The notes beneath the pieces were generated by a model. It was not told the DNA's origin and did not search any database. It saw only the letters and a list, made by a program, of their open reading frames with translations. Positions 4,800-34,264 of a stretch of DNA of 64,000 bases are shown one piece after another. Within the stretch, counting starts at the first letter, position 1. Every line of letters begins with the position of its first letter. The position numbers and the translations under genes were made by a program. This DNA comes from Candidatus Nanopelagicales bacterium. Its GTDB lineage: Bacteria; Actinomycetota; Actinomycetes; S36-B12; GCA-2699445. Location: contig JAUYJT010000056.1 of the NCBI GenBank assembly GCA_030700225.1, forward strand, positions 663-64,662. The letters are read 5' to 3'.

Positions 4800-5744
4800 T
4801 CACGGTGCCTTGTGCTCCAGCAGTGAATCGATCCACGAGTCCAGCGTGGCGGCCCCGACAGACCCTGGGGGCGGAAACTCTCCGATCCGGCCTTCGCTGA
4901 CAGCCGGATTGAGCGGGTAGCAGCCAAGGATCTTGACCTCGGCCGGAACTCGCGCGGCGCAGGCCAGAGCTTCGCGAATCCGCGAATCCGCGAGGTGCCC
5001 GCGTGCGGTTAGCAAGAAGCAGTACTCCCCCAGGCGAGTTCTCAACCGTCGGGAGCTGATCGAGGTCAGTGCGATGTCTCTGCTTGAGAAGCAGGCGAGG
5101 ATGTCCGCCAGGACGCCTGTGCGGTCCCCCACGGGCGTCACCACGACGGCCGTTGTGTCATGCCCAGTCGCAGGAGCTGGCTTACGCCTCAGAACGGCCA
5201 TGCGCGTGGCCACGCCGGAGTGGTCTTCCGCGACGCCGCGCAGAACAGCGAGCGCGTGCAAACGGCCAGCCTTCGCGGAAGCTATCGCCGCGACAGCCGG
5301 GTCGTCCTGACCGGCGACGCGAGCGCAGGCCTCCGAGACCGACTCGACTAGGGTCAGTTCCGCGCCAGAGGATTCGATGAACCGCCGGCACTGAGCCGCT
5401 GCGGCCTGGGTCGTGATCAGGCGCCGAACTCCCGCCGCACGGGCGCCGGCCAAGCCGACGACCACGTAGCTGATGGGCACGACGAGTTCTTCGTTTATGA
5501 AGCAAATGGATGACCGGAAGATCAACTCGTCGATAGTGCTCGACACGTCCCCCTCGACCGAACTCTCCAGCGGCACAATGCCAGCCGCGGCCTCTCCCGC
5601 TTCGACGCTGAAGATCACATCAGGCACGCTGGCACGCGGCGAGACCTCGCCAACCCACGGAACCGCCAACATGTCGACCGCGGAGTGCGTGAACGATCCC
5701 GGCGGGCCAAGGTAGGTCAGCAACTCCCCCGCACCATCAGTCAC
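4800..5744 (-). CDS. pheA: Prephenate dehydratase
   Basis: LTYLGPPGSFTHSA N-terminal motif and an ACT-like C-terminus. GTG at 5744 overlaps the ferredoxin stop; the longer Arg-rich extension was rejected. Confidence 0.85.
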   Translation of the reverse strand: MTDGAGELLTYLGPPGSFTHSAVDMLAVPWVGEVSPRASVPDVIFSVEAGEAAAGIVPLESSVEGDVSSTIDELIFRSSICFINEELVVPISYVVVGLAGARAAGVRRLITTQAAAAQCRRFIESSGAELTLVESVSEACARVAGQDDPAVAAIASAKAGRLHALAVLRGVAEDHSGVATRMAVLRRKPAPATGHDTTAVVVTPVGDRTGVLADILACFSSRDIALTSISSRRLRTRLGEYCFLLTARGHLADSRIREALACAARVPAEVKILGCYPLNPAVSEGRIGEFPPPGSVGAATLDSWIDSLLEHKAP

Positions 5745-6114: not shown

Positions 6115-7161
6115 TTGGACCTAGTATCGTCAATTCCACCACGCCTTGTACAAGGGGGCACCGTGCCGTCATTCCCTGCCGCCAGGGGTTCTATCAACGC
6201 GTCGCCGTCAGACATCGGCCGTCGGCTCACCGTTCGCTATCGGGATGGCTTCGCGAAGCCGGAGCGTGAAGCCGCTGGAGTCCTTGACCGCTGGACCGGT
6301 GGACTCGCTGACGGGATCCTGCAGATCCGGAGCCGCGATGGCAGCGAACTGAGGATCCGGGCAGAGGACCTAGTCGCGGCCAAAGTCATCGAGCCTGAGA
6401 TCTCGGCATACGAACTCCAGTGGCTCGCCGAGCAGGCGTGGCCGCCGATGGAATCGCAGTCCCTCAACGGCTGGGAGCTCCGCGCATCTCAGGGAGCCAC
6501 CTGGCGAGCGAACAGCGTCCGCGTCGCGGGCAGGCCGCCGAAGTCGCTGGCTGACACGTTGCGCAAGGTCGAGCGGTGGTACGCCAAGTTCGACGTCACG
6601 CCCAAGCTGCAAGTCCCGGCGCCATCAGGACTCGACTCGGAACTGGACGAACTCGGCTGGACTGTCGCGCGGACGAGTCGAATGATGATCGCTTCGGTGT
6701 CGCACTTGGCTGCCACGGCTGGAGCCGCGCGCAGCCGGTCCGATCTGGACATCGAGGTCCGCGACGGCCAGAACCCGGAATGGATACGTCTGATCGCCAG
6801 CTATAGGCCAGAGGCCGCCCAGGAATTCGACCACATCATGGACGCGCCAGGTCCTGCCGCGTTCGTGTTCTGCCGAAACGCCGACGGAGTGCTGCTGGGA
6901 GCCGGGCGGGGCCTGGCCCTTGGCGACTGGGCGAGCATCACGAACATCGACACGCTCTCCCAGTCGAGGCGTGAGGGGATAGCGACAGCGATCTTGGCAC
7001 GCCTTGCCCAGTGGGCCGTGGAACAGAACGCCAAGAACTGGTTCCTGCAGGTGTCAGCCGACAACACCGCCGCCCGCGCCTTCTACGAGAAGCACGGGTT
7101 CGTCAAGCATCATCGATACCAATACCGCAGTCCGACCCAGTCTCAGCCCCCGGGGGAGTGA
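6115..7161 (+). CDS. GNAT family N-acetyltransferase
   Basis: C-terminal acetyl-CoA-binding-like region RREGIATAILARLAQWA followed by ARAFYEKHGF. Start codon uncertain. Confidence 0.7.
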   Translation: MDLVSSIPPRLVQGGTVPSFPAARGSINASPSDIGRRLTVRYRDGFAKPEREAAGVLDRWTGGLADGILQIRSRDGSELRIRAEDLVAAKVIEPEISAYELQWLAEQAWPPMESQSLNGWELRASQGATWRANSVRVAGRPPKSLADTLRKVERWYAKFDVTPKLQVPAPSGLDSELDELGWTVARTSRMMIASVSHLAATAGAARSRSDLDIEVRDGQNPEWIRLIASYRPEAAQEFDHIMDAPGPAAFVFCRNADGVLLGAGRGLALGDWASITNIDTLSQSRREGIATAILARLAQWAVEQNAKNWFLQVSADNTAARAFYEKHGFVKHHRYQYRSPTQSQPPGE

Positions 7162-21131: not shown

Positions 21132-21148
21132 GGATCGACGCCCGCTCA

Positions 21149-21312
21149 AACGTTGAAGCGGAACGATCGCGTGGGGTTTCGGCTGTCGTTGGTCACCGCT
21201 GGGTGATGCCGGAGAACATGGCTTGACCTGCGGAAACGCGTTCACGGGAGCTCGGGCGTCGTCGACGATCGTCGGTCTCGGCTGGACTTCTTGCGGACTA
21301 TTTGCGGACCGC
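21149..21312 (+). repeat. Direct repeat R1: ychF-tail mimic plus ~150-bp arm
   Basis: On the minus strand 21146-21163 reads TTC CGC TTC AAC GTT TGA (FRFNV-stop), the same as the ychF end. The rest aligns by eye along its length with 22995-23156 and ends in TCGGCTGGACTTCTTGCGGACTATTTGCGGACCGC. Confidence 0.8.
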
Positions 21313-21432
21313 AGGATGTCCGGAGCCCCTTCCGCATCTGGTCGAACTCGGCCGCCATGCGTCGACCTCAGAGCCCGAATCTGCGGGCAAACACTCGTAG
21401 CCGGGGCGACAGGGGATCCGCATCGCGACGAT

Positions 21433-21930
21433 TCACAGCTGCGCGCCGTCGAACCTCTCGAAGAACCACCCCGCCTGGTCCGGGACGATCTCCGCCAACT
21501 CGTCGGAGACGTCAAGGTCGTACGCGGCAGCGATCTCACCCACCTGGACGCCAACGAGGGCCCGGAGGCGACCAAGAGCCATTGAGAGCGGATCTGTTCC
21601 CATCGGCCGATAGTGGCGGTCCCAGTCGTCGCCTGCGGAACCCACCTGGTCCATGAACTCGCGGAAGAGACGCTGCAGCAGCTGAACCCGTTGAATCATG
21701 TCCGGGCCAATCTCTGGGTTGTCGAGGTGCACGCCCAGCTGCTTGCGTACGTGATCCGCCGACTGCACGCAATGCTCCTCGATCTCCATCGAGAAGTCCT
21801 TCCAAAGCATGCGTCGGTCGGCCAGCAGGTTGAGCGCCCGTCGCGCAATCTCACGGTCGTCGTCCTTCCGCTCCCATTGCGCTCCGCCGAAGGGTCCAAC
21901 CGATCCGCCGGTGACTCGATATCTGGTCAC
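21433..21930 (-). CDS. Hypothetical protein, second gene of the Ymh-like operon
   Basis: 165 aa from GTG 21930, which overlaps the upstream TGA as GTGA. Predicted helical and acidic; no family recognised. Confidence 0.6.
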   Translation of the reverse strand: MTRYRVTGGSVGPFGGAQWERKDDDREIARRALNLLADRRMLWKDFSMEIEEHCVQSADHVRKQLGVHLDNPEIGPDMIQRVQLLQRLFREFMDQVGSAGDDWDRHYRPMGTDPLSMALGRLRALVGVQVGEIAAAYDLDVSDELAEIVPDQAGWFFERFDGAQL

Positions 21931-22718
21931 AAGCTGACTTCCTCGACGTCGGCCTGGTCTACCCATCGAGCCAACAGGCTGAACGCGGCCAGCTGCTCAA
22001 GAGCCAGTTGCTCCTCGCCACCCGCGCTCTCCTGTGGCTTGTGCATACCGGGGTTCCGAATCGCGGTGTAGAGCCCGTCCGCGAAAGCGCGGGCTCCCCG
22101 ATGGAGATTCTGGTAGGTCTTGCCGCCGTCATCCTCCGCCAGGCGAAGACGAGGTGCTCCTTCCTTAGGCTCGTCAAGCGAGAACGCCTCGTTGAACAAC
22201 GCCGTCTCCGACACGTCCATCCGCCCCAACTTGGCCTGCGTCTCCGCATTGATCCGGATCGCCGCCTGCATGACTGCCTGGTGGCAGTGGCCGGTGTTCC
22301 AGTACGACCTTCCGTTCTCCCACGACCACGGGTGGAGATTGGCAGCGTCCATGTCAGGTGCGTTGTCGCCCAACTTCTCAGCCAACTCCCCCTGACGCTG
22401 GAGCGCAGCCTTGGCACGGGAGGCCTGGTCTCGGAGCCAGTCGAAATCCTCGTCCTTCTTCGGACGCTCGCGCGACCAACCGGGAAGCACGCGGTCGAGA
22501 ATCTGCTCCACAACATGCGCGCGTTGCGACGCCTCGGTTGCCGGGCCACGCATGACGGTTCCGAAGTAGGCGATGCCCGGTCCCATGTCAGGGACGACCT
22601 GTGCCGTCACGCCCAGGAACGCGTCGATCTCACTGATTGCCCACTCGGGATCCAACTTCGCCACGGAGACATCTTGCCGCGATGCGCCGACCGAACGAGT
22701 GTCGGAGGCGCGTGTCAC
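21927..22718 (-). CDS. Protein with a C-terminal TIGR02391/Hypoth_Ymh-like domain
   Basis: C-terminal ~130 aa (LHPWSWENGRSYWNTGHCHQAVMQAAIRINAE ... LHRGARAFADGLYTAIRNPGMH ... EQLAAFSLLARWVD) fit the Ymh pattern as I remember it. N-terminal ~115 aa unassigned. Start uncertain (GTG 22718 or 22664). Confidence 0.65.
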   Translation of the reverse strand: MTRASDTRSVGASRQDVSVAKLDPEWAISEIDAFLGVTAQVVPDMGPGIAYFGTVMRGPATEASQRAHVVEQILDRVLPGWSRERPKKDEDFDWLRDQASRAKAALQRQGELAEKLGDNAPDMDAANLHPWSWENGRSYWNTGHCHQAVMQAAIRINAETQAKLGRMDVSETALFNEAFSLDEPKEGAPRLRLAEDDGGKTYQNLHRGARAFADGLYTAIRNPGMHKPQESAGGEEQLALEQLAAFSLLARWVDQADVEEVSL

Positions 22719-22727
22719 GCTCTCTGC

Positions 22728-22973
22728 ATGAGTAACCGTCGCAAGCCGAAGCGCCGCAACCCCGACCCGGCCTCACGCCGCGCCGAGGCGGAAGCTCTTG
22801 TCGACAAGATCCTTCATGACACGCCGGAAGGTCGAGTAGACCCGGCAATCTCAGAGAACCTGCGGCAACATCTTGCGCGGAACCCCGGCCAGCCCGACCG
22901 CGCTCTGCTCAATCACTTCAAGGACCAGATTCCCGACTTCGACGCGGCGTTCCCGGAGGACCTGGAGAAGTAG
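22728..22973 (+). CDS. Small hypothetical protein with a basic N-terminus (81 aa)
   Basis: ATG-initiated ORF MSNRRKPKRRNPDPASRR..., divergent from the Ymh-like gene. A weak hairpin follows at 22977-22994. No homology recognised. Confidence 0.3.
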   Translation: MSNRRKPKRRNPDPASRRAEAEALVDKILHDTPEGRVDPAISENLRQHLARNPGQPDRALLNHFKDQIPDFDAAFPEDLEK

Positions 22974-22994
22974 CAGGGCGGGGCTCTCACGCCC

Positions 22995-23156
22995 CATTGA
23001 AACGGAACGACCACGCGGGATTTGGCCGTTGGTGGTCATCCTGGGTCGATGCCGAAGAGTGCCGCTTGTCCCGCAGCAACGCACTCTCCGGTCCGTTGAG
23101 CGTCGTTGGCGCCCTTCAGGCTCGGCTGGACTTCTCGCGGACTGCTTGCGGACCGC
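22995..23156 (+). repeat. Direct repeat R2: degenerate ychF-tail mimic plus ~150-bp arm
   Basis: Minus-strand 22987-23007 reads FRFNGA-stop. The arm aligns with R1 and ends in TCGGCTGGACTTCTCGCGGACTGCTTGCGGACCGC. Confidence 0.8.
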
Positions 23157-23162
23157 TGGCAA

Positions 23163-23942
23163 TCAGTCATCGGCTTCCAACTCAAGGATGGCGTTGGCGA
23201 CCTCGGACGGGAAGAGCGTCGACCAGATGATCTCGCCCGAGCCAGGGTTCATCTCAGCGAGTGGCGACGGTTCGGGCTGCCAGTCCTCGGGTGTCACACC
23301 CGGGACACAGTCGAGGAGCAGCGCGAAAATCTGCGGATCGGGAACTCCCTCGGCGATGATCGCGAGGTAGGCCTCATGGCCGTTCTCTGCTCGCACAAGA
23401 GCCTTGATCCGATGGCTGCGGAACTCGGCGACGGCGAGGTGGCCGTTCTTCAAGGACATCGAGACAAGGCGGATGACCATCCGCTTCATCTCACGCCGCC
23501 AAGCAACGGCCTGTTCCGCTGCGAGGCGCTTCCAGTCCCAATCGGCCGGAAGAAGGTGATCTGAGGAGACGGTCTTCCCCGTCGTGCACTCTCGCTGCAG
23601 GGTGGCGTAGAAATCGCGCTGAGGGCTGTCCGCTTGGCGTCGACCAGCCGCTCCGATCCACCACGCCCCTCGGCTCGGGCGCACCCAGTCCGGGAGTTCC
23701 TCGCCGCGAAGCTCTGTGACGGCGGCGCGATGGTCACTGGTCTTGACCTTGAACCAGACGCGGTCGGCGAGCGCAACGACGCGCTCTGCGCCACCGGCAT
23801 CCCGCTGCTCTGGAACGCTCTGAGCGTTAGCCACGACCGGGTGATCGATCTCTTCCAACCGGATCCCGAGGTCCGGCAGACCAGCCGCAAGGTCACCGAG
23901 GCAGCGCTTCGTCGGACGCACGCCGATCGGTTCCGAGACCAT
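23163..23942 (-). CDS. Hypothetical 259-aa protein downstream of an RHH gene (candidate toxin/effector)
   Basis: Clean ORF 47 nt downstream of the RHH gene. The segment RVWFKVKTSDHRAAV...AWWIGAAGRRQADSPQRDFY loosely resembles the RelE/ParE beta-sheet pattern. C-terminal ~140 aa unassigned. Confidence 0.6.
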   Translation of the reverse strand: MVSEPIGVRPTKRCLGDLAAGLPDLGIRLEEIDHPVVANAQSVPEQRDAGGAERVVALADRVWFKVKTSDHRAAVTELRGEELPDWVRPSRGAWWIGAAGRRQADSPQRDFYATLQRECTTGKTVSSDHLLPADWDWKRLAAEQAVAWRREMKRMVIRLVSMSLKNGHLAVAEFRSHRIKALVRAENGHEAYLAIIAEGVPDPQIFALLLDCVPGVTPEDWQPEPSPLAEMNPGSGEIIWSTLFPSEVANAILELEADD

Positions 23943-23989
23943 GGCGCGAATCTAGCGGCCAGGTCCGACGGTCAGCGGGCCGTCATGGG

Positions 23990-24250
23990 CTACTTCGGCA
24001 GCCCGCCGAGGTCATCGAGCTCTTCGGCGCTGAGGCCGGTCATAAGCGACACAGCAGCAGCTTCGGTGCCTTTGAGCTGACCGAGCGCAGCCTTGACGCC
24101 AGCGTTGATCTCATCGCGGTGTGCGTCGATGTACTCGCGCACGGCGGCATCGACGATGTCCTTCTTCGAGCGGGACATGAAGTGAGCTGCGTGCGACACA
24201 AGCTCGTCAGTCGCGGCGTCGACCTTGATCGGCGCAGTAGCGGTAGCCAT
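23990..24250 (-). CDS. Ribbon-helix-helix (CopG/ParD-like) DNA-binding protein, antitoxin-like
   Basis: 86 aa from ATG 24250, preceded by AAGGAGGG. The N-terminus PIKVDAATDELVSHAAHFMSRSKKDIVDAAVREYI fits the beta-alpha-alpha RHH pattern. Confidence 0.65.
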   Translation of the reverse strand: MATATAPIKVDAATDELVSHAAHFMSRSKKDIVDAAVREYIDAHRDEINAGVKAALGQLKGTEAAAVSLMTGLSAEELDDLGGLPK

Positions 24251-24269
24251 AGCGCTGCCCTCCTTCTCG

Positions 24270-24283
24270 GGTACCAAAGTACC
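24270..24283. promoter_or_regulatory. Palindrome GGTACCAAAGTACC upstream of the RHH gene (candidate operator)
   Basis: Perfect 5+5 inverted repeat with a 4-nt spacer, 20-33 nt upstream of the RHH start on the minus strand. Confidence 0.35.
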
Positions 24284-24313
24284 AGTATCTACCGTCATGG
24301 CAAATCCGCGTGG

Positions 24314-25381
24314 ATGGTTATGCGTCCGGCCGCACGTCGCCGATCCGCCTGTGGGCGCCAGTGCACGCCGATAACCTCAGAGGCACCATGGGTTACCGGG
24401 GACGACGACGCCAACCGCCTTGCCGCCCAAGCGCGCGCCCGCGTGCTCATCGACCGGCAGCTCGCCGAGGCGGGCTGGTCGGCGCAGGACCTTAAGTACG
24501 TCGTCCTGTTCCGCCCGATCGGCTCGATGGTCGAGTTCAAGCAGATCGTCGGGCGAGGGTCACGTCTCTACCCCGAGAACGACAAGTACTCCTTCGAGAT
24601 CGTGGACTACGTCGGCGCTTCGGTCCTTTTCTCCGATCCAGGCTTCGACGGTGAGCCGGTGCGCATACGGACCGAGCGCATCGACGAGTCCGGCGAGATC
24701 GTCGAAGACGAACTCGGGGACGTTGCCCCCGAGATGCCGTCGCTTGGCGAACCCGAGCCCCCCTTCGACCGAACCCAGTCCGAAGGAGAGCTCGAACAGC
24801 CGTCGGCGAGGAAGCATTACGTCGACGGCACAGAGGTCACTGTGACTGCCGAGGCGTACTACGTCGCTGACACGAGTACCGGCGCTCTCCGCCTCGTGGA
24901 ATACACGGACTACCTGGCCGGCCAGGTGCGCGTGCTGTGTCCGACCATCGATGACCTTCGCGCACGCTGGGCCGATCCTCAGCTACGTGCGGTCTTGGAG
25001 GAGGGCCTCGCCTCGCGCGGCGTGTCCATCGAAGAGATGTCGAGGCGCCTCGAACTTGCGCCCGACACGGACCCCTTCGACGTCCTCGCACACGCCGCCT
25101 GGAACGTTCCTCAACGGACGAGGGCGGAACGCGCTCGGCTGGTGCGCGAAGACCACGCGAGCGACCTCAAGGCGCTGGTGCCGACCGCGCGCGAGATCAT
25201 CTCCGCCCTCCTCGACCGCTACGAGGAGTACGGCGTCGAGGAGATGACCCACATCTACGCCTTCCAGGTGCCGCCGCTGAGCAACTTCGGCTCACCCGTC
25301 GAAGCGGCACAACACTTCGGCGGCGCTGAAGGCTGGCGCCAAGCCGTCAGCGAGCTCCAAGGTTGGCTGTACTCAGCGTGA
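24314..25381 (+). pseudogene. hsdR: Type I restriction enzyme R subunit remnant (in-frame internal deletion)
   Basis: HsdR-like N-terminal motif ARARVLIDRQLAEAGW is joined directly to helicase motif VI (FKQIVGRGSRL) and an EcoEI_R_C-like C-terminus (DPFDVLAHAAWNVPQRTRAERA). Nuclease and DEAD-box motifs I-V are absent. Confidence 0.7.
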
Positions 25382-25435
25382 GTTTTATTTTAGCGACGGC
25401 CGACTGCATAGAACTAAAGTCTAGATTGAGTTCGA

Positions 25436-26047
25436 ATGCGCTATGCTTGGCCCATGGCCGGCACTCGACAGGATCTGCGGCTGGCGCTCCAACGCCTTGC
25501 CTTCAGCCAGGCTGGCTACTTCACCGCCGCCGAGGCTCTCGACCTCGGGTACAGCTATCAGGCACAGAAGTACCACGCCGATAGTGGCAACTGGCTGCGA
25601 GTCGACCGTGGTCTGTTCCGACTTCCCGACTGGCCCTCCGCTCCCGAGGACCAGTGGGTGCGCTGGACCCTATGGAGCGAGGGCCGTGGCGTCGTGTCCC
25701 ACGACTCGGCCGCGCTCGTCCACGACCTCGGCGAGCTCGATCCCCGCCACGTGCACCTGTCCGTTCCCCCCGGATTCCGGGCCGTGGATCCGGCGGTGGT
25801 CACGCATGTGTACGATCTGCCTGCCGCGGACGTTCTCGACCGCGGCGCCTGGCGGGTGACTACGCCGCTGCGCACACTGCTCGATCTCGCGGGTGGCGAC
25901 ACCACGCAGGAGCAACTCGAGGCTGCGGTCGCCGCCACGCTGGAGCGGGGCCTGACGACCGCGCGCCGGATCCGCACTCGCTCGGACGAGGCCGGAGACC
26001 GGGCGGCGCTCCGCATCGAGCGGGCGCTCAAGGCAACGACGACATGA
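25436..26047 (+). CDS. Type IV toxin-antitoxin system AbiEi family antitoxin
   Basis: 203 aa with an AbiEi-like wHTH N-terminus (LAFSQAGYFTAAEALDLGYS) and an ATGA overlap with the downstream nucleotidyltransferase. Preceded by the only low-GC patch in this region (25381-25435). Confidence 0.75.
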   Translation: MRYAWPMAGTRQDLRLALQRLAFSQAGYFTAAEALDLGYSYQAQKYHADSGNWLRVDRGLFRLPDWPSAPEDQWVRWTLWSEGRGVVSHDSAALVHDLGELDPRHVHLSVPPGFRAVDPAVVTHVYDLPAADVLDRGAWRVTTPLRTLLDLAGGDTTQEQLEAAVAATLERGLTTARRIRTRSDEAGDRAALRIERALKATTT

Positions 26048-26898
26048 CCGACAACCAGGCGCTCAGAACCAGCATCGAGCAACGGCTCGCCAATCTGGCG
26101 GCCGAGCGACAAGTCTCGCTCGATCGGTTGCGCCGCCACTTCGTTTTCCAGCGGATCCTGGTTCGACTGTCCGCGGACGACAACTGGGTACTCAAAGGCG
26201 GCTTCGCCCTCGAGGTCAGGCTCGGCCTCGACGCCCGGGCGACCAAGGATCTGGATCTGGCCATGCTGGAGGACCTCGACGGCGTCGAGGCGCAGGATCG
26301 TCTGCTCGATGCTCTCGACGTCGACGCCGGTGACGGATTGACCTTCCAGGTGTCCGCACCGCGAGCGATCGCCTCGGACGATGCCGGAAACCCCGGCTGG
26401 AGGTTCACCGTCACATCGGTCCTAGGCGGCAAGGTCTTCGCATCGCTGCGCCTCGACGTCGTCGCGCGGAGCGCGGAGATCGTCGGCGCCATCGGCACCA
26501 TCGAGGTACGCCCGCCGATCCTCGCGGAACTCCTGAGCAGCACCGCGATGCCGACGGTGGACATCGCCCAGCACGCCGCGGAGAAGTTCCACGCGATGGC
26601 CCGGACGTACGCCGGAGATCGACCCAGCAGCCGCGTCAAGGACTTGGTCGACGTCGTACTCCTCGTGGAAGCGGGGCTGCTGCCGAATCCGGACCTGCCC
26701 GGTCGGCTTCAAACGGTCTGGCAGGTGCGGGACGGCGTGCCGCCACCGGCACAGCTCCCCGATTTCCCGGCGTCGTGGCCCAGCGACTTCGCCGCAATGG
26801 CCGCTGAACTCGATCTGGCCGTCGACTACCCCACCGCCCGCTCCACCGCCGAACGACTCTTCGCCGAGGCGGTCACCACCGAGGAGAACCAATCGTGA
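26044..26898 (+). CDS. AbiEii/AbiGii nucleotidyltransferase toxin (DUF1814)
   Basis: VLKGGFALEVRLGLDARATKDLDL nucleotidyltransferase motif. 284 aa. Its stop overlaps the hsdM GTG as GTGA. Confidence 0.8.
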   Translation: MTDNQALRTSIEQRLANLAAERQVSLDRLRRHFVFQRILVRLSADDNWVLKGGFALEVRLGLDARATKDLDLAMLEDLDGVEAQDRLLDALDVDAGDGLTFQVSAPRAIASDDAGNPGWRFTVTSVLGGKVFASLRLDVVARSAEIVGAIGTIEVRPPILAELLSSTAMPTVDIAQHAAEKFHAMARTYAGDRPSSRVKDLVDVVLLVEAGLLPNPDLPGRLQTVWQVRDGVPPPAQLPDFPASWPSDFAAMAAELDLAVDYPTARSTAERLFAEAVTTEENQS

Positions 26899-28391
26899 GC
26901 CGTGCCGCCAAGAGCGTTGCCCAGACCCCGCAGGCGCGTCTCGCGTCGGTCATCAAGACCAGTCGGGACATCATGCGCAAGGACGCCGGCCTCAACGGCG
27001 ACCTGGACCGGCTTCCTCAACTGTCCTGGCTCCTCTTCCTCAAGGCCTTCGACGACCTCGAGCGGAACAGGATGATCGTCGACCCCAGCTACCGGCCAGC
27101 ACTGCCGGAGGAGCTCCGATGGAGCGTGTGGGCGGCAGATCCGACCAAGCGCAAGCAGGGTGACGCCCTCATCAACTGGGTCAACGGAACCCTGCTCCCG
27201 GGGCTTGGCCGACTGAAGGGATCCGGCCGGGCGGGCGACCCTCGCACCACGCTCGCCACGGTCTTCAAAGAGACCAACAACCGAATGCTGTCCGGCTACC
27301 TGCTCGGTGACCTGATCGACCAGATCGACAAGGTGCACTTCACGTCGGCCGACGACATCCACACCATGGCCCATCTGTACGAGTCGATGCTGCGCGAAAT
27401 GCGGGACGCAGCCGGAGACTCGGGCGAGTTCTACACACCCCGGCCGGTGATCCGGCTCATGGTCGAGCAGGTCAATCCGCGCTTGGGCGAGACGGTGCTG
27501 GACCCGGCTGTCGGCACAGGCGGATTCCTGGTCGAGGCATACGAGCACCTCCGCGCCCAGGCGCGGTCCGCGACCGAGATCGCGACGGCGAAACGCTCGA
27601 TCAGCGGCTTCGAGAAGAAGCCACTCCCCTACCTGCTCTGCCAGATGAACCTGCTCCTGCACGAAGTGGAACAGCCCAACGTCACCCGCATGAACTCGCT
27701 GACCTTCTCGTTGGCTGACCAGCGCAAGGCCGGCGTCGACGTCGTTCTGACCAACCCGCCGTTCGGGGGTGAGGAGGAGAGCAGCAGCCTGGGGAACTTC
27801 CCTGCCGACTCGCGGACGGCAGAGACCGCCTGGCTGTTTCTCCAGGTGGTGATGGCGCGCCTGGAGAAGAGGAAGGGCCGCTGCGGGATCGTCGTCCCCA
27901 ACGGGGTCCTCTTCGCCAACGAGGGCGCGCCGGCACGGATCAAGAAGAAGCTGCTCACCGACTTCAACCTGCACTCTGTGGTGCGGCTGCCCAACGGCGT
28001 CTTCGCTCCGTACACCCTCATCCCCTCCAACCTGCTCTTCTTCGAATACGGCGGGCCAACGAAGGACATCTGGTTCTACGAGCAGCCCCTGCCGGAGGGG
28101 CGGAAGAACTACACGAAGACAAGACCGCTGCGTTTCGAGGAATTCGCCGATGTCCAGGCATGGTGGGGTGGCACGGATCGAGTCGGCCGAGTCGAGAACG
28201 AGCACGCGTGGAAGGTCGACGCCGCCACACTCGCGGAGGACGGCTACAACCTGGATCTCCGCAACCCGCATCGTGCCGACGATCTGACGCATCGCTCGCC
28301 CGAGGAACTCGTCAAGGAACTGATTGCCGTGGAGGAGCAGATCCTCGCAGCCCTTCAGGACCTCCAGTCCAACCTCGGGAACGACGCCTGA
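26895..28391 (+). CDS. hsdM: Type I restriction-modification system methyltransferase subunit
   Basis: N6-adenine MTase motif IV NPPFGG, SAM motif VLDPAVGTGGFL, and an HsdM N-terminal domain. Confidence 0.9.
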   Translation: MSRAAKSVAQTPQARLASVIKTSRDIMRKDAGLNGDLDRLPQLSWLLFLKAFDDLERNRMIVDPSYRPALPEELRWSVWAADPTKRKQGDALINWVNGTLLPGLGRLKGSGRAGDPRTTLATVFKETNNRMLSGYLLGDLIDQIDKVHFTSADDIHTMAHLYESMLREMRDAAGDSGEFYTPRPVIRLMVEQVNPRLGETVLDPAVGTGGFLVEAYEHLRAQARSATEIATAKRSISGFEKKPLPYLLCQMNLLLHEVEQPNVTRMNSLTFSLADQRKAGVDVVLTNPPFGGEEESSSLGNFPADSRTAETAWLFLQVVMARLEKRKGRCGIVVPNGVLFANEGAPARIKKKLLTDFNLHSVVRLPNGVFAPYTLIPSNLLFFEYGGPTKDIWFYEQPLPEGRKNYTKTRPLRFEEFADVQAWWGGTDRVGRVENEHAWKVDAATLAEDGYNLDLRNPHRADDLTHRSPEELVKELIAVEEQILAALQDLQSNLGNDA

Positions 28392-29512
28392 TGGCGGTGC
28401 GGCAGGTGCGAGTAGGGGACATCCTCTCGCTTCACCGCGTTCCCGTTCAGATTGACGAGGCAGATAGCTACAGGCAAATCGGCCTCTACTCCTGGGGCAA
28501 AGGGTTCATCCATCGACCTTCGTGTCTCGGCTTCGAACTCAGCAAGCTTCGTTACTTTCAGATCCCAGCCGGCGCTCTCGTTCTCAGCAGCATCCAGGCA
28601 TGGGAGGCGGCCATCGCCGTATCGACCAACGCTGAAGCTGAATTCATCGGGTCGAACCGGTTCCTTAGCTATGTACCGCGCACCGACGACGTGGACGTGC
28701 GCTACTTACTGCACTACTTCCTCTCCGAACCTGGTCTCCACCAGATCAAGCAGGCTTCGCCGGGAACGCAGGTACGAAACCGAACGCTGGGGCAGCAACT
28801 CTTCGAGCGCCTAGCAATTCCCCTGCCCGACGTCACCGAGCAGCAGTGCATTGCCGCACGCCTCGACCGAATCGTGGCAATCTCGACGTCGTTCGGCGAA
28901 CCTCCGACCGCGGCCCTTCGAGACAACTTCCTCGATAGGGTCTCGCAGAGATCACGGATCGGGCACATCATCACGCTTGCTCGACACCCTGTGAGCGTCA
29001 AAGCGAGCGAGGCCTACCCGAACCTCGGCATCCTCAACCGGGCCCGTGGTGTGTTCGCCAAGCCGCCGATGCTGGGTTTAGGGACGAAGTACTCGACCTT
29101 GTATCGGGTGCGCGCCGGACAGTTGATCTATTCGAAACTGTTCGGCCGGGAGGGATCGCTCGCCATCGTGCCCGAGTGGGCGGACGGGTGGTTCGTCTCC
29201 AGCGAGTTCCCCACGTTCGACGTGAACACCGACGCAGTAGATCTCGACTACTTCGGCCAGGTGTTGCGCTGGCGCGGTCTCGCGGAACAGCTGGCCGCCG
29301 CGACGTCAGGGATGGGTCAGCGGCGACAGCGCGTGCAGATCGACCAGTTCGAGGCGCTCGAGGTCCCGTTGCCAGACCTCCCGACCCAACGCCACATCGG
29401 CGCCGATCTCCTCCGACTCGCCGCAGTCGAGGGCCTGGTGGCCCACAGGGCAACGCTGTCGGCCGGCCTACTTCCTGCCGCTCGGAATCAAGCGTTCGCC
29501 AGCCTCACCTGA
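28391..29512 (+). CDS. hsdS: Type I restriction-modification system specificity subunit
   Basis: ATG overlaps the hsdM TGA (TGATG). 373 aa with two target-recognition-like halves separated by a helical spacer (LPLPDVTEQQCIAARLDRI and LPLPDLPTQRHIGADLLRL). Confidence 0.8.
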   Translation: MAVRQVRVGDILSLHRVPVQIDEADSYRQIGLYSWGKGFIHRPSCLGFELSKLRYFQIPAGALVLSSIQAWEAAIAVSTNAEAEFIGSNRFLSYVPRTDDVDVRYLLHYFLSEPGLHQIKQASPGTQVRNRTLGQQLFERLAIPLPDVTEQQCIAARLDRIVAISTSFGEPPTAALRDNFLDRVSQRSRIGHIITLARHPVSVKASEAYPNLGILNRARGVFAKPPMLGLGTKYSTLYRVRAGQLIYSKLFGREGSLAIVPEWADGWFVSSEFPTFDVNTDAVDLDYFGQVLRWRGLAEQLAAATSGMGQRRQRVQIDQFEALEVPLPDLPTQRHIGADLLRLAAVEGLVAHRATLSAGLLPAARNQAFASLT

Positions 29513-30161
29513 CGCTGCGCCATGAACTTCCCGCGATTACTACGTGGTCAAGGAACCGGAGTCCGGCCGCATCGGCGGCCCGGCCTACGGCGCCAGTGGC
29601 CTCACGGTCGTAGATGCTTGGGGTCGGATCTCCAGAAGGATGATTGTGCGCGAGGGCGAACGCTCGACCGTCGTACCGCAGCACGGCGTGCAGCACCTCT
29701 CGGACAGGCAACGGACTCGAGTCCAGGCCTCCAGTTGCAACGGGTACAAGGCGAAGCACGCGGTTGGCGGCGTCGGCCACCAGGACCACGACCTTCTCCC
29801 GCCGTTCGCGGGCGAGCACCGGGGCGACCAGCTCAGCGATCGCGGCTGCGGAGTCCACGACACGGTTGGCCGGTGAAGCTGTAGCCCGAGCCGCTAGTTC
29901 GAATGCGGCTGTTAGGCGCACTGCCTCTGCGGGGCCGATGCTTGATGACCGCATCAGCTCCTCAGGAAACGCGGCTGCCAGGCCACTCAGTCCTCCGCAC
30001 TCGTCGATCAGTTTCCGACCCACCGCAACCTCGTCGCATCCCTGTGGTGCTACGGCGGCTACCAGGGCAACAAGCTCGGCGTCGCTGAGCGCGCCAGGTC
30101 CCAGACTCAGGAGACGCTCGCGGGGCTGGTCGCCGGCGAACAGCCGCGACGTGATCGACAT
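29505..30161 (-). CDS. radC: RadC-like JAB/MPN domain protein
   Basis: JAMM motif LAHNHPSGDPTPS and an N-terminal HhH-like region. Converges on hsdS with an 8-nt overlap. Confidence 0.8.
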   Translation of the reverse strand: MSITSRLFAGDQPRERLLSLGPGALSDAELVALVAAVAPQGCDEVAVGRKLIDECGGLSGLAAAFPEELMRSSSIGPAEAVRLTAAFELAARATASPANRVVDSAAAIAELVAPVLARERREKVVVLVADAANRVLRLVPVATGGLDSSPLPVREVLHAVLRYDGRAFALAHNHPSGDPTPSIYDREATGAVGRAADAAGLRFLDHVVIAGSSWRSVR

Positions 30162-30231
30162 CCCGCAACGCTAGGTCGCAGAGCCGACGAGCACTATCGC
30201 GCCCGAGACACCTGTGGAAAGGCTAGCTTCG

Positions 30232-30570
30232 TCAGCCCTTGAAGATGCAGGTCGGATCGTTGTCGTACTCGGCCAGCAGCCGCTCGATCGGCTGATCCGG
30301 CTCGAGAAGGTCGTAGGCATGGGCTCGGGAGTTCCGATCGAACCAGTACAGGGTCCAGCCCTTCGTTTGCTCGTCGTACTTCATCCGAGCCTGCGGAGTG
30401 TCGGTCCACTCCGGGCCTAGCGCCGGATTCCACGGCGGCCGATGCTCGACGATCGTCACGGTGCGACCGCGCACGCGGTGCTCCACACGCACCTGTTCCC
30501 GCATCTCGGGCGGGACCTGCGTCTCGCAGAACCGCCGGATCCGCGCGAGATCGGTCTCTGGGACGGCCAT
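30232..30570 (-). CDS. DUF3024-like protein
   Basis: 112 aa from the internal ATG (MAVPETDLARIRRFCE...VTIVEHRPPW...GWTLYWFDRNSRAH), a pattern I associate with DUF3024. Confidence 0.6.
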   Translation of the reverse strand: MAVPETDLARIRRFCETQVPPEMREQVRVEHRVRGRTVTIVEHRPPWNPALGPEWTDTPQARMKYDEQTKGWTLYWFDRNSRAHAYDLLEPDQPIERLLAEYDNDPTCIFKG

Positions 30571-30784
30571 GGGCTCAGTATCTGATGAGTATCGCCGGGG
30601 CCGCCATCCGCGTCCCACCCTTCCCGCTCTCGTGCCCCTCACTGACTACCGCCGACTCCTCACCGTCGCGAGAATCTCTCCCACGTCGCACCCGCCTTCG
30701 CCCTCAACCCCTTTGAGTGGCACCCATCAGACAGAACCCGCGAACCTTGCCGATTGGTCGGCCCTGGCTGCAAAGATCGATGTC

Positions 30785-31696
30785 ATGAGCGGCAAGCACA
30801 TCGAGCTCTTCCTCGTCGACGGCACCCCCGGCGGCCTGACGACTGCGGAGATCCTGAACTGGACGGGGCAGGTCTTCAGTGCTCCGCGATCGGAGATGAG
30901 CGCCCTCGTCCGCCGCGCCGAGCTCGCGGGCACGTGCGTGTACCTACTGCTCGGTCCCGACGAGCAAGGCGGCAGCCGTTGCTACATCGGCGAGACCGAC
31001 GACTTCAAGGCACGCCTTCGATACCACGATGCGAACAAGGAGTTCTGGCGCAAGGCCGTGGTGATCACCTCGAAGGACGCGAACCTGACGAAGGCACACG
31101 GCCGCTATCTGGAGTCCCGCCTGATCGCACTCGCTCTCCAGGTCGGCCGCGTCGTCCTCGACAATGGGACGACTCCTCCGCCACAGGCACTGCCCGAGGC
31201 GCACGCCTCCGACATGGACTACTTCATCGACCAGCTGCAGATTGTCCTGCCGGCCCTCGGAGTCGATGCCATCCGCGGTCGGGAGACCGTCGCAGTGACG
31301 GCAGCGCGGCAGGAACAGCTGGTGTCGCCGGTCTTTCGTCTCGTGAACATGAAGCTCGGCGTCGCTGCAACGGCTCAGCAGATCGACGGGGAGTTCACGA
31401 TGCTGGCCGGTTCTACCGTCGTGGGTGACTGGCAGGGCGTGGGGAAGGCCGACAGCACGATCAAGGCGTACGACTCGTACCGAACCCAACACCTCAAGCT
31501 CATCGCCGACGGCTCGATCATCGTCGAGAACGGTGTCGGTCGGGTCGCGAAGGACATCGTCTTCGGCTCCCCATCGACCGCTGGCGCGATCGCTCAGGGG
31601 CGCTCCTGCAACGGCCGGACCTCCTGGGCGGCGGAGGACGGCAGCACCTTCGGCTCCTGGGAGAGCCGCGGTGTCGGGACAACGGAGGTCTCCTGA
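30785..31696 (+). CDS. GIY-YIG nuclease domain protein with a DUF4357-like C-terminus
   Basis: GIY-YIG elements CVYLLLG, CYIGETDDFKARLRYH and ESRLI. The C-terminus FGSPSTAGAIAQGRSCNGRTSW is typical of DUF4357. Start ATG 30785; the upstream ORF extension is antisense to DUF3024. Confidence 0.75.
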   Translation: MSGKHIELFLVDGTPGGLTTAEILNWTGQVFSAPRSEMSALVRRAELAGTCVYLLLGPDEQGGSRCYIGETDDFKARLRYHDANKEFWRKAVVITSKDANLTKAHGRYLESRLIALALQVGRVVLDNGTTPPPQALPEAHASDMDYFIDQLQIVLPALGVDAIRGRETVAVTAARQEQLVSPVFRLVNMKLGVAATAQQIDGEFTMLAGSTVVGDWQGVGKADSTIKAYDSYRTQHLKLIADGSIIVENGVGRVAKDIVFGSPSTAGAIAQGRSCNGRTSWAAEDGSTFGSWESRGVGTTEVS

Positions 31697-31698
31697 CC

Positions 31699-31842
31699 AT
31701 GGCTGGCATCCAGCACCTGTCCATGCGCGCGCCATGGCGCGACCGACCGTGGGACCAGTTCCTCTGCGACGACCCGCTCGGCAACTCCTCATGCACTCTC
31801 CTCGCGGCGATCGGCAAACGTCGTGACGACGACACTGGTGAG
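31699..31842 (+). pseudogene. N-terminal stub (~48 codons) of a larger gene coupled to the GIY-YIG gene
   Basis: ATG lies 2 nt after the GIY-YIG stop. MAGIQHLSMRAPWRDRPWDQFLCDDPLGNSSCTLLAAIGKRRDDD looks like a genuine conserved N-terminus, but after ~31842 the frame runs antisense through another gene. Confidence 0.45.
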
Positions 31843-31989
31843 GAGCGGCAATTGATTCAGGCGCTCCTCGGCCTGCCGGAGGAACGACGCCGCACGCGCG
31901 ACGTCTGCGGGCACGACATCGAGACGTCCCGCCTCGACCAGCGCGAGCACGGTCGCCTGCTGGACGCGGGTGAGCGGGGTCAGCGCCAC
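31789..31989 (-). pseudogene. Truncated partner gene of the wHTH-nucleotidyltransferase (possible HEPN-type toxin remnant)
   Basis: GTG 31989 overlaps the upstream stop by 10 nt. About 49 plausible codons (VALTPLTRVQQATVLALVEAGRLDV...RLNQLPLLTS) are followed by junk read-through to the stop at 31789. Confidence 0.4.
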
Positions 31990-32564
31990 GGCAGCTCCCC
32001 GATCACGGCGACCGCCGGGCCGCTGCGCACGTTGTCCAGGAAGCCGGAGGGAGCGGCGAACTCCGCATCTGTGAGGATCGTCGGGTTCACGGGCCGGTGC
32101 ACCGCAGCCTCGATCCGGGCGCACGCCTCGTAGACCGCGTCCACGTCGGGCTCACCGAGCACCATGACGTCGATGTCGTGCGGTGCCGGACCGGCATCCC
32201 CGAGCATCCGCGCGGCGAAGGAACCGTAGAGGAACGCCGACTCGATCCCGTCGATGCGAGCAAGCTCCTCGGCCAGGATCACCACCGGACCAGTAGCGAC
32301 CGTGAGGATCTCGCGCAACGGCTCCACCAGCGGGCTCTCGCCGTTGGCGCGGATCAGCCTCGTGCGGCCCACCTGCCGCTCGCTCAGGATGCCAGCGTCC
32401 ACCAGGCGCGCGACCTCGCGGTGCGCGGTCGGGTATGCCAGGCCCGCCCGTTTGGCCAGATCGGTGACGCTGAGCTCCTCGCCGGTCAGCAACAAGGTGG
32501 AGAGCAGGCGCGCTTGGCCGTCCGACCGGAAGATCGGAGCGAGGAGCGGTGCCTCAGTTCTCAT
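31980..32564 (-). CDS. Winged-helix (ArsR/MarR-like) plus nucleotidyltransferase-domain protein (MNT-type antitoxin-like)
   Basis: HTH region LSVTDLAKRAGLAYPTAHREVARLVDAGIL and NTase motif LYGSFAARMLGDAGPAPHDIDVMVL. ATG 32564 chosen. Confidence 0.7.
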   Translation of the reverse strand: MRTEAPLLAPIFRSDGQARLLSTLLLTGEELSVTDLAKRAGLAYPTAHREVARLVDAGILSERQVGRTRLIRANGESPLVEPLREILTVATGPVVILAEELARIDGIESAFLYGSFAARMLGDAGPAPHDIDVMVLGEPDVDAVYEACARIEAAVHRPVNPTILTDAEFAAPSGFLDNVRSGPAVAVIGELPWR

Positions 32565-32573
32565 ATAACTGAG
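32553..32573. promoter_or_regulatory. 7-bp inverted repeat CTCAGTT-N7-AACTGAG spanning the start codon of the wHTH-NTase gene
   Basis: Perfect inverted repeat in a low-GC patch. Candidate autoregulatory operator or 5-prime hairpin. Confidence 0.35.
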
Positions 32574-32975
32574 ATTATCCTCCACTATATCGATAGTCAA
32601 CGCCGGGGAATAGTCAAGACCTGTGGATTGGCGTGTCTCATGCTGCGGTGATCCCGTCGGGGCGCTCGATGAGTTTGAACGCCATCGCCACGCCATCTGC
32701 CCTCGAGCCTGGACCTTTGGTGACTTTGGTCCGCAGCCGGACGGTCGCGAACACGGACTCCATCGTTCATCGTTATCTGGAGGCGTCCAGCAGGGGGGTC
32801 CTTGGAGGTCTGATGCTCGTTCAGCGGGTGGCGGCACTACGAGCCGTGCTTGAAGCCGAAATCGCGCAGAATGTCGGACCCGTAGTACACAATGAGGAGG
32901 TCAACGCAGCCTAAGCGATCAACGGGCCGCTACCGAAGTTCCACGGAACTCGGGACATCCTCGAAACGCGCCGAT

Positions 32976-34055
32976 TCACACGTTGAAGCGGAACTCCACG
33001 ACGTCCCCTTCGGCCATGACGTAGTCCTTGCCCTCGATATGCAACTGGCCGCGCGCCCTGGCCTCGGCCAGGGACCCGGCCGCGACCAACTCATCGAAGG
33101 ACACGACCTCGGCCTTGATGAACCCGCGCTGGAAATCAGTGTGAATGACGCCGGCGGCCTCCGGTGCCGTGGCGCCCCTGCGAATCGTCCAAGCGCGCGA
33201 TTCCTTCGGGCCAGCTGTCAGGAAAGTCTGCAATCCGAGCGCGTCGAAAGCGACACGCGCCAAAGCCGCGATGCCTGACTCCTCCTGCCCGACCGACCGC
33301 AGAAGCTCAAGGGCTTCCTCTTCGGGCAGCTCGGCCAGCTCCGACTCGACCTTCGCGTCCAGAATCACGGCCTCCGCCGGGGCCACCAACGCACGTGCCT
33401 GGGCCGCGAAGTTCGGGTCCGCCAGCTCCTGCTCATCCGCGTTGATCACGTAGAGGAAGGGCTTGGCCGTCAACAAGAACAGCTCCCGGATCGCGGCGGC
33501 GTCGACGCCGGATCCGAACAGGGTCCGCCCAGAGTCCAGGATCTCCTGCGCCCGCAGGGCTGCGGATAGGGCCGCACCGCGCGACTTGTCGTTTCGAGCC
33601 TCCTTCTCCAACCTGGGGATCGCCTTCTCGAGGGTCTGCAGGTCCGCCAGGATCAGCTCAGTGTTGATCGTGTCCATGTCATCGGCGGGCGATATCCGAC
33701 CCTCCAGATGGATCACATCTGGGTCCTCGAACGCTCGCAGTACCTGGCAGATCGCGTCGGACTCGCGGATGTGAGCCAGGAACCTATTCCCCAACCCCTT
33801 GCCCTCGCTGGCACCGCGCACGATCCCCGCGATGTCGACGAAGGTGACCGCCGCCGGTACGACCCTCCGCGAGGCGAAAACCTCCGCCAGAACGTCCAGC
33901 CTGGGATCCGGCACCCCAACGACGCCAGTGTTCGGCTCGATCGTCGCGAAGGGGTAGTTGGCGGACATGGCGGCCGCTGAGTTGCGAGTCAGGGCGTTCA
34001 GCAGCGTCGACTTTCCAACGTTAGGCAAGCCGACGATTCCGACAGTGAGTCCCAC
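32976..34055 (-). CDS. ychF: Redox-regulated ATPase YchF
   Basis: P-loop GIVGLPNVGKST, and a C-terminal IHTDFQRGFIKAEV TGS-type domain. Ends in EFRFNV-stop. Confidence 0.9.
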   Translation of the reverse strand: MGLTVGIVGLPNVGKSTLLNALTRNSAAAMSANYPFATIEPNTGVVGVPDPRLDVLAEVFASRRVVPAAVTFVDIAGIVRGASEGKGLGNRFLAHIRESDAICQVLRAFEDPDVIHLEGRISPADDMDTINTELILADLQTLEKAIPRLEKEARNDKSRGAALSAALRAQEILDSGRTLFGSGVDAAAIRELFLLTAKPFLYVINADEQELADPNFAAQARALVAPAEAVILDAKVESELAELPEEEALELLRSVGQEESGIAALARVAFDALGLQTFLTAGPKESRAWTIRRGATAPEAAGVIHTDFQRGFIKAEVVSFDELVAAGSLAEARARGQLHIEGKDYVMAEGDVVEFRFNV

Positions 34056-34160: not shown

Positions 34161-34264
34161 GGCGGCCGTTCCTGACAAACGCGACCGTTAGGGTACAGAC
34201 GCGACCGTTGCAACGGGAGTTTCTTTGCGTAACGGTCGCGTTTGGCGGGAACGGTCGCTTCTTC
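34161..34264 (-). repeat. Structured dispersed intergenic repeat, copy B (inverted)
   Basis: Perfect 15-bp inverted repeat CAAACGCGACCGTTA (34176-34190) / TAACGGTCGCGTTTG (34230-34244) enclosing the 12-bp palindrome CCGTTGCAACGG (34205-34216). The reverse complement aligns with copies A and C. Confidence 0.85.

Follow-up and report, generated by a model that had tools for sequence, protein, structure and literature searches.

Among the systems described so far, the closest to the locus studied here is the toxin-antitoxin (TA) pair ParE(SO)-CopA(SO) of prophage CP4So in Shewanella oneidensis, in which the antitoxin gene comes first in the operon and encodes an autoregulating ribbon-helix-helix (RHH) protein with a C-terminal extension (PDB 6IYA and 7ETR; PMC8706911). 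Our locus is a pair of genes for an 86-amino-acid (aa) predicted RHH protein and a 259-aa protein directly downstream of it, found in a stretch of 64,000 nucleotides (nt) of a Candidatus Nanopelagicales bacterium (contig JAUYJT010000056.1, positions 663 to 64,662; the whole stretch is called the window). Like the window pair, ParE(SO)-CopA(SO) resides on an integrative element, and it stabilises CP4So after excision (PMC8706911). The partner of CopA(SO) is a ParE toxin, whereas the partner in the window is a two-domain protein of 259 aa without detectable relationship to ParE or RelE; the hosts are Gammaproteobacteria for the former pair and Actinomycetota for the latter, and the similarity between the RHH protein and CopA(SO) lies below any curated threshold. 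A ParE toxin has only about 100 aa. Weighing what the sequences and a structural model can tell, we lean, somewhat beyond an even balance, towards the view that the window pair would be a type II TA-like addiction or defence module with a new effector family, acting as the persistent core of a small integrative element.

The VapB/Rv0623-like antitoxins (PF07704, PF09957) provide a second comparison. They have the same size and the same position upstream of their partner, and they give the best Pfam matches for 20 of 20 RHH family members. VapB systems, however, pair with a PIN-domain VapC, which the window partner is not. As for the genomic setting, tyrosine-integrase elements that insert at the 3′ ends of tRNA or protein genes and bring a replacement copy of the interrupted end with them resemble those that carry the pair in their duplicated target ends, in the arm-type repeats by the core and in their tandem cassettes. 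Unlike the usual elements of this kind, those of the pair are very small (1.2–3 kb), mostly lack an integrase and have the pair as their only constant cargo. Two TA pairs on integrative elements, mosAT of SXT and sgiAT of SGI1, are thought to prevent the loss of their elements and possess toxins larger than the classical ones; their hosts and element types differ from those of the window pair, and no relationship in sequence to them was detected, though no search aimed at one was made. The type of operon is thus already known, while the effector family, its fold and its minimal integrative-element context are undescribed in the libraries and papers searched; literature searches on the locus tags and on integration at ychF gave nothing relevant.

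The genome scan, with one genome taken per species, gave 77 loci with a homologue of the 259-aa protein. Nearly all belong to Actinomycetota (Nocardioides, Amycolatopsis, Microbacterium, Leifsonia, Micromonospora and Actinoplanes among them), and the set includes one Microthrixaceae and one Tepidiformaceae metagenome-assembled genome. An RHH gene lies directly upstream in 71 of the 77 loci, which are all those with upstream DNA present and unrearranged; the remaining six have a contig end, a rearrangement or only a fragment of the 259-aa gene. An earlier note on this DNA had let its TA-like proposal hang in part on such linkage in other genomes, and the neighbourhood survey bears out the linkage. 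Both genes are intact in 57 loci, and no third conserved gene was found beside the pair in the compared loci. The gene order is constant, with the small gene first, and the two genes are either about 50 nt apart or, in distant branches, overlap by 4 nt. The ratio of nonsynonymous to synonymous divergence (dN/dS), calculated against the window copy, is 0.07–0.16 for both genes, which means purifying selection. A perfect GGTAC-N2-6-GTACC palindrome is located 29–60 nt upstream of the RHH start codon in 48 of the 71 linked loci, and it is also present in a branch in which the large protein is only 38–49% identical to that of the window. This recurrence of the pair, the palindrome and the purifying selection is not due to chance, and the two genes are a real, strongly conserved operon of Actinobacteria.

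The RHH protein has 377 homologues and consists of an N-terminal RHH-like domain followed by a conserved C-terminal tail. The matches of the 20 diverse members to PSK_trans_fac (Rv0623-like, VapB) and VapB_antitoxin all lie below the curated cut-offs, with best E-values of 6.4e-6 and 2.6e-5, respectively. In the comparison with PF07704 PSK_trans_fac and PF09957 VapB_antitoxin, the window protein reaches 17.5 bits against a curated cut-off of 28.3 bits, and it has a sub-threshold match to a RelB-like NCBIfam model too. RHH_1 was matched by only one of the 20 members (E 0.057). PADLOC has no model for the RHH protein, its sole match being at chance level (E 0.038). When the family profile was compared with the PDB sequences, the best matches were the CopG-family chains 6iya (E 0.0085) and 7etr (E 0.014), both of which are CopA(SO), the antitoxin of the system that maintains prophage CP4So after its excision (PMC8706911).

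The tail persists where the remainder of the protein has changed. In branches with a large protein of about 33% identity, the partner still belongs to the RHH family and the two genes overlap by 4 nt. Beside the two most divergent homologues of the 259-aa protein, the tail of the partner can still be aligned (hhalign 94%, E 9e-8, and 87%, E 4e-6), whereas its N-terminal half does not align with the RHH family. Because the tail is kept beside the 259-aa gene even though the N-terminal domain has been replaced, we tie it to the function of the partner, and the alignments suggest that the tail may be the part that works with the 259-aa protein. A kept tail together with a swappable DNA-binding domain would amount to the modularity typical of antitoxins. 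The synonymous divergence of the RHH gene is consistently below that of the partner gene in the same genome pairs (for example, 0.39 vs 0.58 and 0.29 vs 0.77), a hint that its coding sequence is under some additional constraint.

In a large protein collection, 348 homologues of the 259-aa protein were found, all of them unnamed or annotated as 'hypothetical' and almost all of about 258–261 aa; at 50% identity, the family has 298 clusters. No family was found in Pfam, NCBIfam, PADLOC or PHROGs for the window protein, 64 relatives or nine length variants; the variants had been considered as possible fusions, an idea that was rejected, as they are frameshifted pseudogenes. Both the single-sequence and the profile searches of the PDB sequences gave nothing below E 0.3. 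An AlphaFold2 model built on an alignment of 64 sequences has a predicted local distance difference test score (pLDDT) of 93.5 and a predicted template modelling score of 0.86; an earlier model from a shallow alignment (pLDDT 62.6) was discarded. The model shows two domains. The N-terminal one (residues ~1–125) is an alpha/beta domain; next come a 33-residue helix (134–166) and the C-terminal domain of alpha-beta-beta-beta-alpha-beta-alpha topology (134–259). A Foldseek search of the model against PDB and BFVD returned no match with E ≤ 0.001. The statement of the earlier note that this protein belongs to no recognisable family therefore holds across Pfam, NCBIfam, PADLOC, PHROGs, PDB and Foldseek. 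Conservation is concentrated in the N-terminal half (R9, P10, T11, D60, K65, K67, R72, W95, G100, R102, D110, F111, Y112, P132, D136, R139 and E143), and the N-terminal domain carries nearly all of the conserved polar residues. Judged from the alignment, this set of residues fits what may be an active site or a site for binding nucleic acids or nucleotides.

Is the N-terminal domain then a toxin fold that has diverged too far to be recognised? The earlier note had seen a faint likeness to RelE/ParE in residues 60–115, which received no statistical support from profile, single-sequence or structure comparison. The alignment of the 259-aa family with a 112-sequence RelE alignment in hhalign gave a probability of 0.7% (P = 0.08), six RelE, ParE, YoeB, YafQ and HigB sequences scored no better against the 259-aa protein than their shuffles did, none of 64 members matched a Pfam model of the RelE/ParE clan at E ≤ 0.1, and the 50 Foldseek matches listed, which extend to E 1.6, include no RelE, ParE, HigB or YoeB structure. 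The order of elements in the model, beta-alpha-alpha-beta-beta-beta-alpha, nevertheless resembles that of the RelE fold. The catalytic residues of E. coli RelE are K52, K54, R61, R81 and Y87; in the 259-aa family, K65, K67, R72, R102 and Y112 are 84–100% conserved, and K65-x-K67, R72, R102 and Y112 sit on model elements comparable to those of the RelE residues. It is exactly that beta-hairpin (residues 54–78 against RelE 42–66) that hhalign chooses, and the RHH protein has as its nearest solved relative an antitoxin that neutralises a ParE toxin. In view of the uniformly negative hhalign, shuffle, Pfam-clan and Foldseek comparisons, we consider it quite unlikely that the N-terminal domain is a very divergent mRNA interferase of the RelE/ParE fold fused to a novel C-terminal domain, and treat the idea as no more than a lead; what is left is the positional coincidence of K65-x-K67, R72, R102 and Y112 with the RelE residues.

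Downstream of the intact ychF gene (34055→32976), the window contains in succession 9.7 kb of cargo, the pair, an arm called R2, a cassette of Hypoth_Ymh/HEPN and DUF6650 genes, a second arm called R1 with a perfect core, and host genes. The earlier note had described the pair as the first cargo after repeat R2. The repeat is real, but the pair is better read as the last two genes of an island that has inserted itself at the ychF 3′ end. Positions 23100–23159 of R2 and 21256–21315 of R1 are 82% identical over 60 nt, and the 33-nt core pattern has exactly two occurrences in the window, with 0 expected. R1 closes the Hypoth_Ymh/HEPN and DUF6650 cassette, which is separate from the pair, and marks the distal end of the island. 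Homologous elements of about 170 nt stand directly after the 259-aa gene in loci L001–L005, L007, L008, L016, L033, L038 and L062. They share three conserved blocks, namely the GTCCGCAA repeats, a central CGCGTTTCCGCAGGTCAG and a far-end TCGTTCCGCTTCAACGTCTGA, the last of which is identical to the final codons of ychF (F R F N V stop). Two other identities of the arm were considered and rejected: an RNA gene, as there is no Rfam match and no covariation or conserved structure, and a decayed coding remnant, as its conservation has no 3-nt periodicity. Since an Rfam match, a covarying structure and codon periodicity are all lacking, the arm of about 170 nt is read as a putative DNA site of att type.

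The island as a whole (21147–32993, 11.8 kb) lies at the ychF 3′ end and is bounded by the ychF core and its R1 copy. Its cassettes look to have accumulated in tandem at a single att site. No integrase gene was found in the island of the window, and a metagenome search for its unoccupied site found nothing.

The same arrangement is found in much smaller form elsewhere. In L005, nothing but the two genes (1.9 kb) separates one copy of the ychF core from the other (a 19-nt repeat). In a group of 11 loci, the pair is located 120–320 nt after menB, with a common left-end motif, CG(C/G)GTTTGCGCAGGTC, beginning 5 nt past the stop codon; the menB end is copied just after the 259-aa gene over 15 nt in L011 and over 60 nt in L032. 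The pair abuts tRNA-Ser(gga) in five loci and tRNA-Leu(tag) in seven Amycolatopsis loci, and in further loci it faces the 3′ end of a tRNA-Ala, -Ser, -Arg or -Met gene. Repeat-flanked units of 2.4–7.7 kb are present in L040, L052, L059, L065 and L068, the direct repeats measuring 177 nt at 83% identity in L052 and 159 nt at 95% in L068. The duplication of a target-gene end is thereby seen in these five loci as well as in L002, L005, L011, L018, L032 and L039, the latter six being two-gene units of 1.2–1.9 kb between the duplicated ends. Searches of 72,556 plasmids, 50,697 phage records and the IMG/VR viral contigs gave no homologue.

Of the 77 loci, 12 have a tyrosine integrase or part of one beside the pair, and it is apparently full-length in about two. 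L015, from Nocardioides psychrotolerans CGMCC 1.11156, and L004, from a metagenome-assembled genome, have integrases taken to be intact. The integrase is convergent with the 259-aa gene and directly after it in L009, L013, L015, L035, L048 and L052, which represent both deep branches. In L001 and L004 it is divergent and precedes the RHH gene, and the Phage_integrase domain was confirmed in L004. The tRNA-Ser-flanked unit of L052 (2.4 kb) contains nothing but the pair and an integrase remnant. The right arm of L011 retains a remnant of the integrase C-terminus on the opposite strand, and the minimal unit there is therefore a deletion derivative. The ancestral element was probably about 3 kb long and made up of an integrase and the RHH/259-aa pair.

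This setting raises the question of whether the pair serves the element itself. Together with the tyrosine integrase it might govern excision or the directionality of recombination, start replication of the excised circle or aid mobilisation, with the RHH protein as an accessory factor and the 259-aa protein as a novel DNA-processing enzyme. The pair abuts att-type repeats at ychF, menB or tRNA gene 3′ ends, the order RHH→ 259-aa→ ←integrase recurs in both deep branches, the L052 unit holds the genes of these three proteins and nothing else, the GTCCGCAA repeats with their 11-nt spacing adjoin the 3′ end of the 259-aa gene, and Y112 is invariant and accompanied by conserved Arg and Lys residues. 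A gene for an RHH protein is often found ahead of a relaxase or Rep gene, copG-repB and nikA-nikB being examples. Nevertheless, about 57 loci keep the pair intact and under purifying selection, nearly all of them with either no integrase or a decayed one, and a role that depends on mobility is unlikely, because such a function should decay along with the integrase. The 259-aa protein is also acidic and has no conserved histidine, hence no HUH motif. Among the Foldseek matches listed there is no likeness to a recombinase, relaxase or Rep protein, and only weak, partial matches to the topoisomerase II cleavage core (probability ~0.2) were obtained. Moreover, the same att arm closes cassettes that do not contain the pair (R1 and the L004 arm b), and plasmids, phage records and IMG/VR contigs are without homologues. 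Taken together, we hold a service to the element to be distinctly unlikely. A more radical version, in which the 259-aa protein would be a new DNA-processing enzyme such as a recombinase, the 1.2–1.9 kb units would be autonomous mobile elements independent of any integrase and the RHH protein would regulate these units or act as a directionality factor, appears highly improbable to us. The recombinase idea had come from the xis-int-attP-like layout and was largely rejected on account of the acidic protein, the integrase remnant in L011, the integrase in both deep branches and the arm on cassettes without the pair.

Which role, then, would explain that the pair outlives the integrase? As 57 loci have both genes intact and only about two have an integrase that looks full-length, an addiction role or another role that benefits the host is favoured over one in mobility. 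A TA-like module is the best explanation because, in addition to this persistence, it accounts for the antitoxin-like RHH protein, the palindrome, the kept tail, the tight coupling of the genes and the neighbourhoods rich in TA and defence genes. The suggestion of the earlier note that the pair is a type II TA operon is upheld in its linkage, its antitoxin-like RHH protein, its operator-like palindrome and its mobile, defence-associated setting; the effector matches no recognised toxin superfamily.

We propose that an RHH dimer would bind the GGTACTTTGGTACC palindrome, which overlaps the putative −10 region, and thereby repress the operon, and that the C-terminal tail (residues ~48–83) would bind and neutralise the 259-aa protein. 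If stress, infection or loss of the element led to degradation of the RHH protein or ended its synthesis, the 259-aa protein would be set free and would arrest growth, presumably through the cluster of the invariant residues R9, T11, D60, K65, K67, R72, W95, R102, D110, Y112, D136, R139 and E143 in its N-terminal part, with nucleic acid or a nucleotide as the likely substrate. The C-terminal domain, whose topology is like that of type III secretion chaperones, would probably serve for oligomerisation or partner binding.

Several observations weigh against such a module. The 259-aa protein is acidic (pI 5.3, family median 5.2), unlike most toxins directed at RNA or the ribosome, and in Pfam, NCBIfam, PADLOC, PHROGs, PDB and Foldseek it resembles no known toxin by sequence or fold. 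The RHH gene is intact and the 259-aa gene disrupted in 10 loci, with the converse in at most one, but this 10:1 asymmetry of decay is not significant after correction for the threefold difference in gene length (binomial P ~0.2). In every locus, the RHH protein is more conserved than its partner (for example, 93% vs 89% and 66% vs 38%), and in TA pairs it is more usually the antitoxin that is less conserved than the toxin. In a rival reading, the RHH protein would be a transcriptional repressor only and the 259-aa protein a non-toxic enzyme or a phage-defence effector of benefit to the host, with no neutralisation by protein-protein contact. The conserved palindrome and RHH domain, the location of the pair in defence islands, the strong purifying selection on both genes, the acidic nature of a protein like no toxin family and the higher conservation of the RHH protein would all agree with this. 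The retention of the tail beside the 259-aa gene even when the DNA-binding domain has been replaced does not, and the close coupling of the genes, which in places overlap by 4 nt, and their one-to-one linkage over about 300 clusters are more typical of interacting pairs. We therefore regard a plain repressor with an accessory protein as unlikely, though as a contender to be taken seriously, and retain the TA-like module as the preferred explanation.

Should the 259-aa protein prove to be a toxin or an effector of defence, it would found a new effector family, which comprises about 300 clusters at 50% identity and is found almost exclusively in Actinomycetota. The fold of the protein is predicted with confidence, and Foldseek gave no significant match for it to solved or viral structures. 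The integrase and the addiction pair would then constitute one of the smallest self-stabilising integrative elements known, and this would help to explain why the 3′ ends of ychF, menB and tRNA genes are accretion points for defence cassettes in actinobacterial genomes. The conserved residues, K65, K67, R72, R102 and Y112 among others, are direct targets for mutagenesis.

The coordinates of the pair, its upstream signals, the arms and the other genes of the island are collected in the table. Both genes of the pair are on the minus strand and each is present as a single copy in the window. The RHH-like open reading frame (ORF) of 86 aa, the AAGGAGG ribosome-binding site, the upstream palindrome, the 47-nt gap and the 259-aa ORF, which the earlier note had reported, are all present in the sequence, as is every peptide string quoted in it. 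A scan of the region upstream of the RHH gene with the strict sigma-70 consensus found no promoter. The last 24–34 nt of the intergenic spacer are 88–100% identical across eight close loci; an intergenic hairpin acting as an attenuator was considered and rejected, the predicted RNA fold being no better than those of shuffled sequences (z = −0.58).

Features of the gene pair and of the surrounding island, in window positions (residue numbers for protein parts)
Feature	Position	Strand	Details
RHH gene	23990–24250	-	ORF 24250→23990, 86 aa, N-terminus MATATAPIKVD
N-terminal RHH-like domain	residues ~6–45 of 86-aa protein		RHH-like pattern PIKVD...SHAAHF...SKKDIVDAAVREY
Conserved C-terminal tail	residues ~48–83 of 86-aa protein		AVSLMTGLSAEELDDLGG; family pattern AVSLMTGLSxEELDxLGG
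259-aa gene, candidate effector/toxin	23163–23942	-	ORF 23942→23163
Intergenic spacer	23943–23989	-	47 nt, without obvious Shine-Dalgarno sequence ahead of 259-aa gene
Shine-Dalgarno sequence AAGGAGG of RHH gene	24259–24265	-	8 nt ahead of ATG at 24250; read from sequence
Palindrome, presumed operator of RHH protein	24270–24283	-	GGTACTTTGGTACC on coding strand, GGTACCAAAGTACC on plus strand
-10-like TACTTT	24276–24281	-	inside palindrome; our own reading of the sequence
-35-like hexamer TTGCCA	24298–24303	-	16 nt upstream of -10-like hexamer; inferred from sequence only
Arm R2, conserved noncoding att-type element	22987–23162	-	~175 nt, directly 3′ of 259-aa gene
R2 part: GTCCGCAA direct repeats	23128–23154		11-nt spacing; adjoins 259-aa 3′ end
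R2 part: diverged copy of central CGCGTTTCCGCAGGTCAG motif			
R2 part: degenerate ychF 3′ end	23010–22987		TCGTTCCGTTTCAATGGGGCGTGA
Arm R1, second, better-preserved copy	21147–21316	-	ends in ATCGTTCCGCTTCAACGTTTGA, ychF 3′ core at 21147–21168
Last codons of intact ychF	32976–32993	-	TTCCGCTTCAACGTGTGA = F R F N V stop; proximal end of island
81-aa ORF	22728–22973	+	R2–R1 cassette
Hypoth_Ymh/HEPN-like protein	21927–22718	-	PADLOC matches Aga_HEPN, PD-Lambda-3_B
DUF6650 protein	21433–21966	-	40-nt overlap with Hypoth_Ymh/HEPN-like gene
RadC-like JAB protein	29505–30161	-	island cargo
432-aa protein, C-terminal DUF4357	30398–31696	+	island cargo
Helix-turn-helix (HTH; MarR/IclR-like) protein with nucleotidyltransferase domain	31980–32837	-	island cargo

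The neighbours of the pair in the window include type I restriction-modification, AbiEi/AbiEii and Hypoth_Ymh/HEPN genes; they are PemK, VapBC, ThsB_TIR and SLATT around P0089, and HEPN and MrfA-like genes in L004. At 24119–25381 (+) of the window, the gene for a type I restriction R subunit has an internal deletion, with the N-terminal motif RVLIDRQLAEAGW fused directly to the end of the helicase domain and EcoEI_R_C, whereas hsdM (26895–28391) and hsdS (28388–29512) are apparently intact. An AbiEi/AbiEii pair (type IV TA/abortive infection; 25436–26898, +) is located between the broken hsdR and hsdM. The segment 21433–22973, between R2 and R1, is a separate cassette that may be a defence pair.

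Comparable cassette arrays, in which a copy of the arm of about 170 nt closes every cassette, are present at 6785–8743 of L004, 2881–6283 of L003 and 6785–8545 of L002, the L004 cassette between arms a and b containing genes for DUF3024, a MarR-like HTH protein and a HEPN protein. At 5554–7020 of L002, the pair and its ychF-type arm are flanked by a perfect 26-nt direct repeat that corresponds to another gene's 3′ end (GCGGCGACCCGATCTTCTGGGGGTAG), and it looks as if this unit had moved to a new target and carried its old arm along. In L010, a RelE-family toxin gene (996–1268, −) is located between an integrase fragment and the RHH gene, which places another TA gene in the same hotspot. Between the start of ychF and rmuC, outside the island, there is a 29-nt inverted repeat (34162–34258 of the window) whose arms are 90% complementary and enclose a loop of 39 nt.

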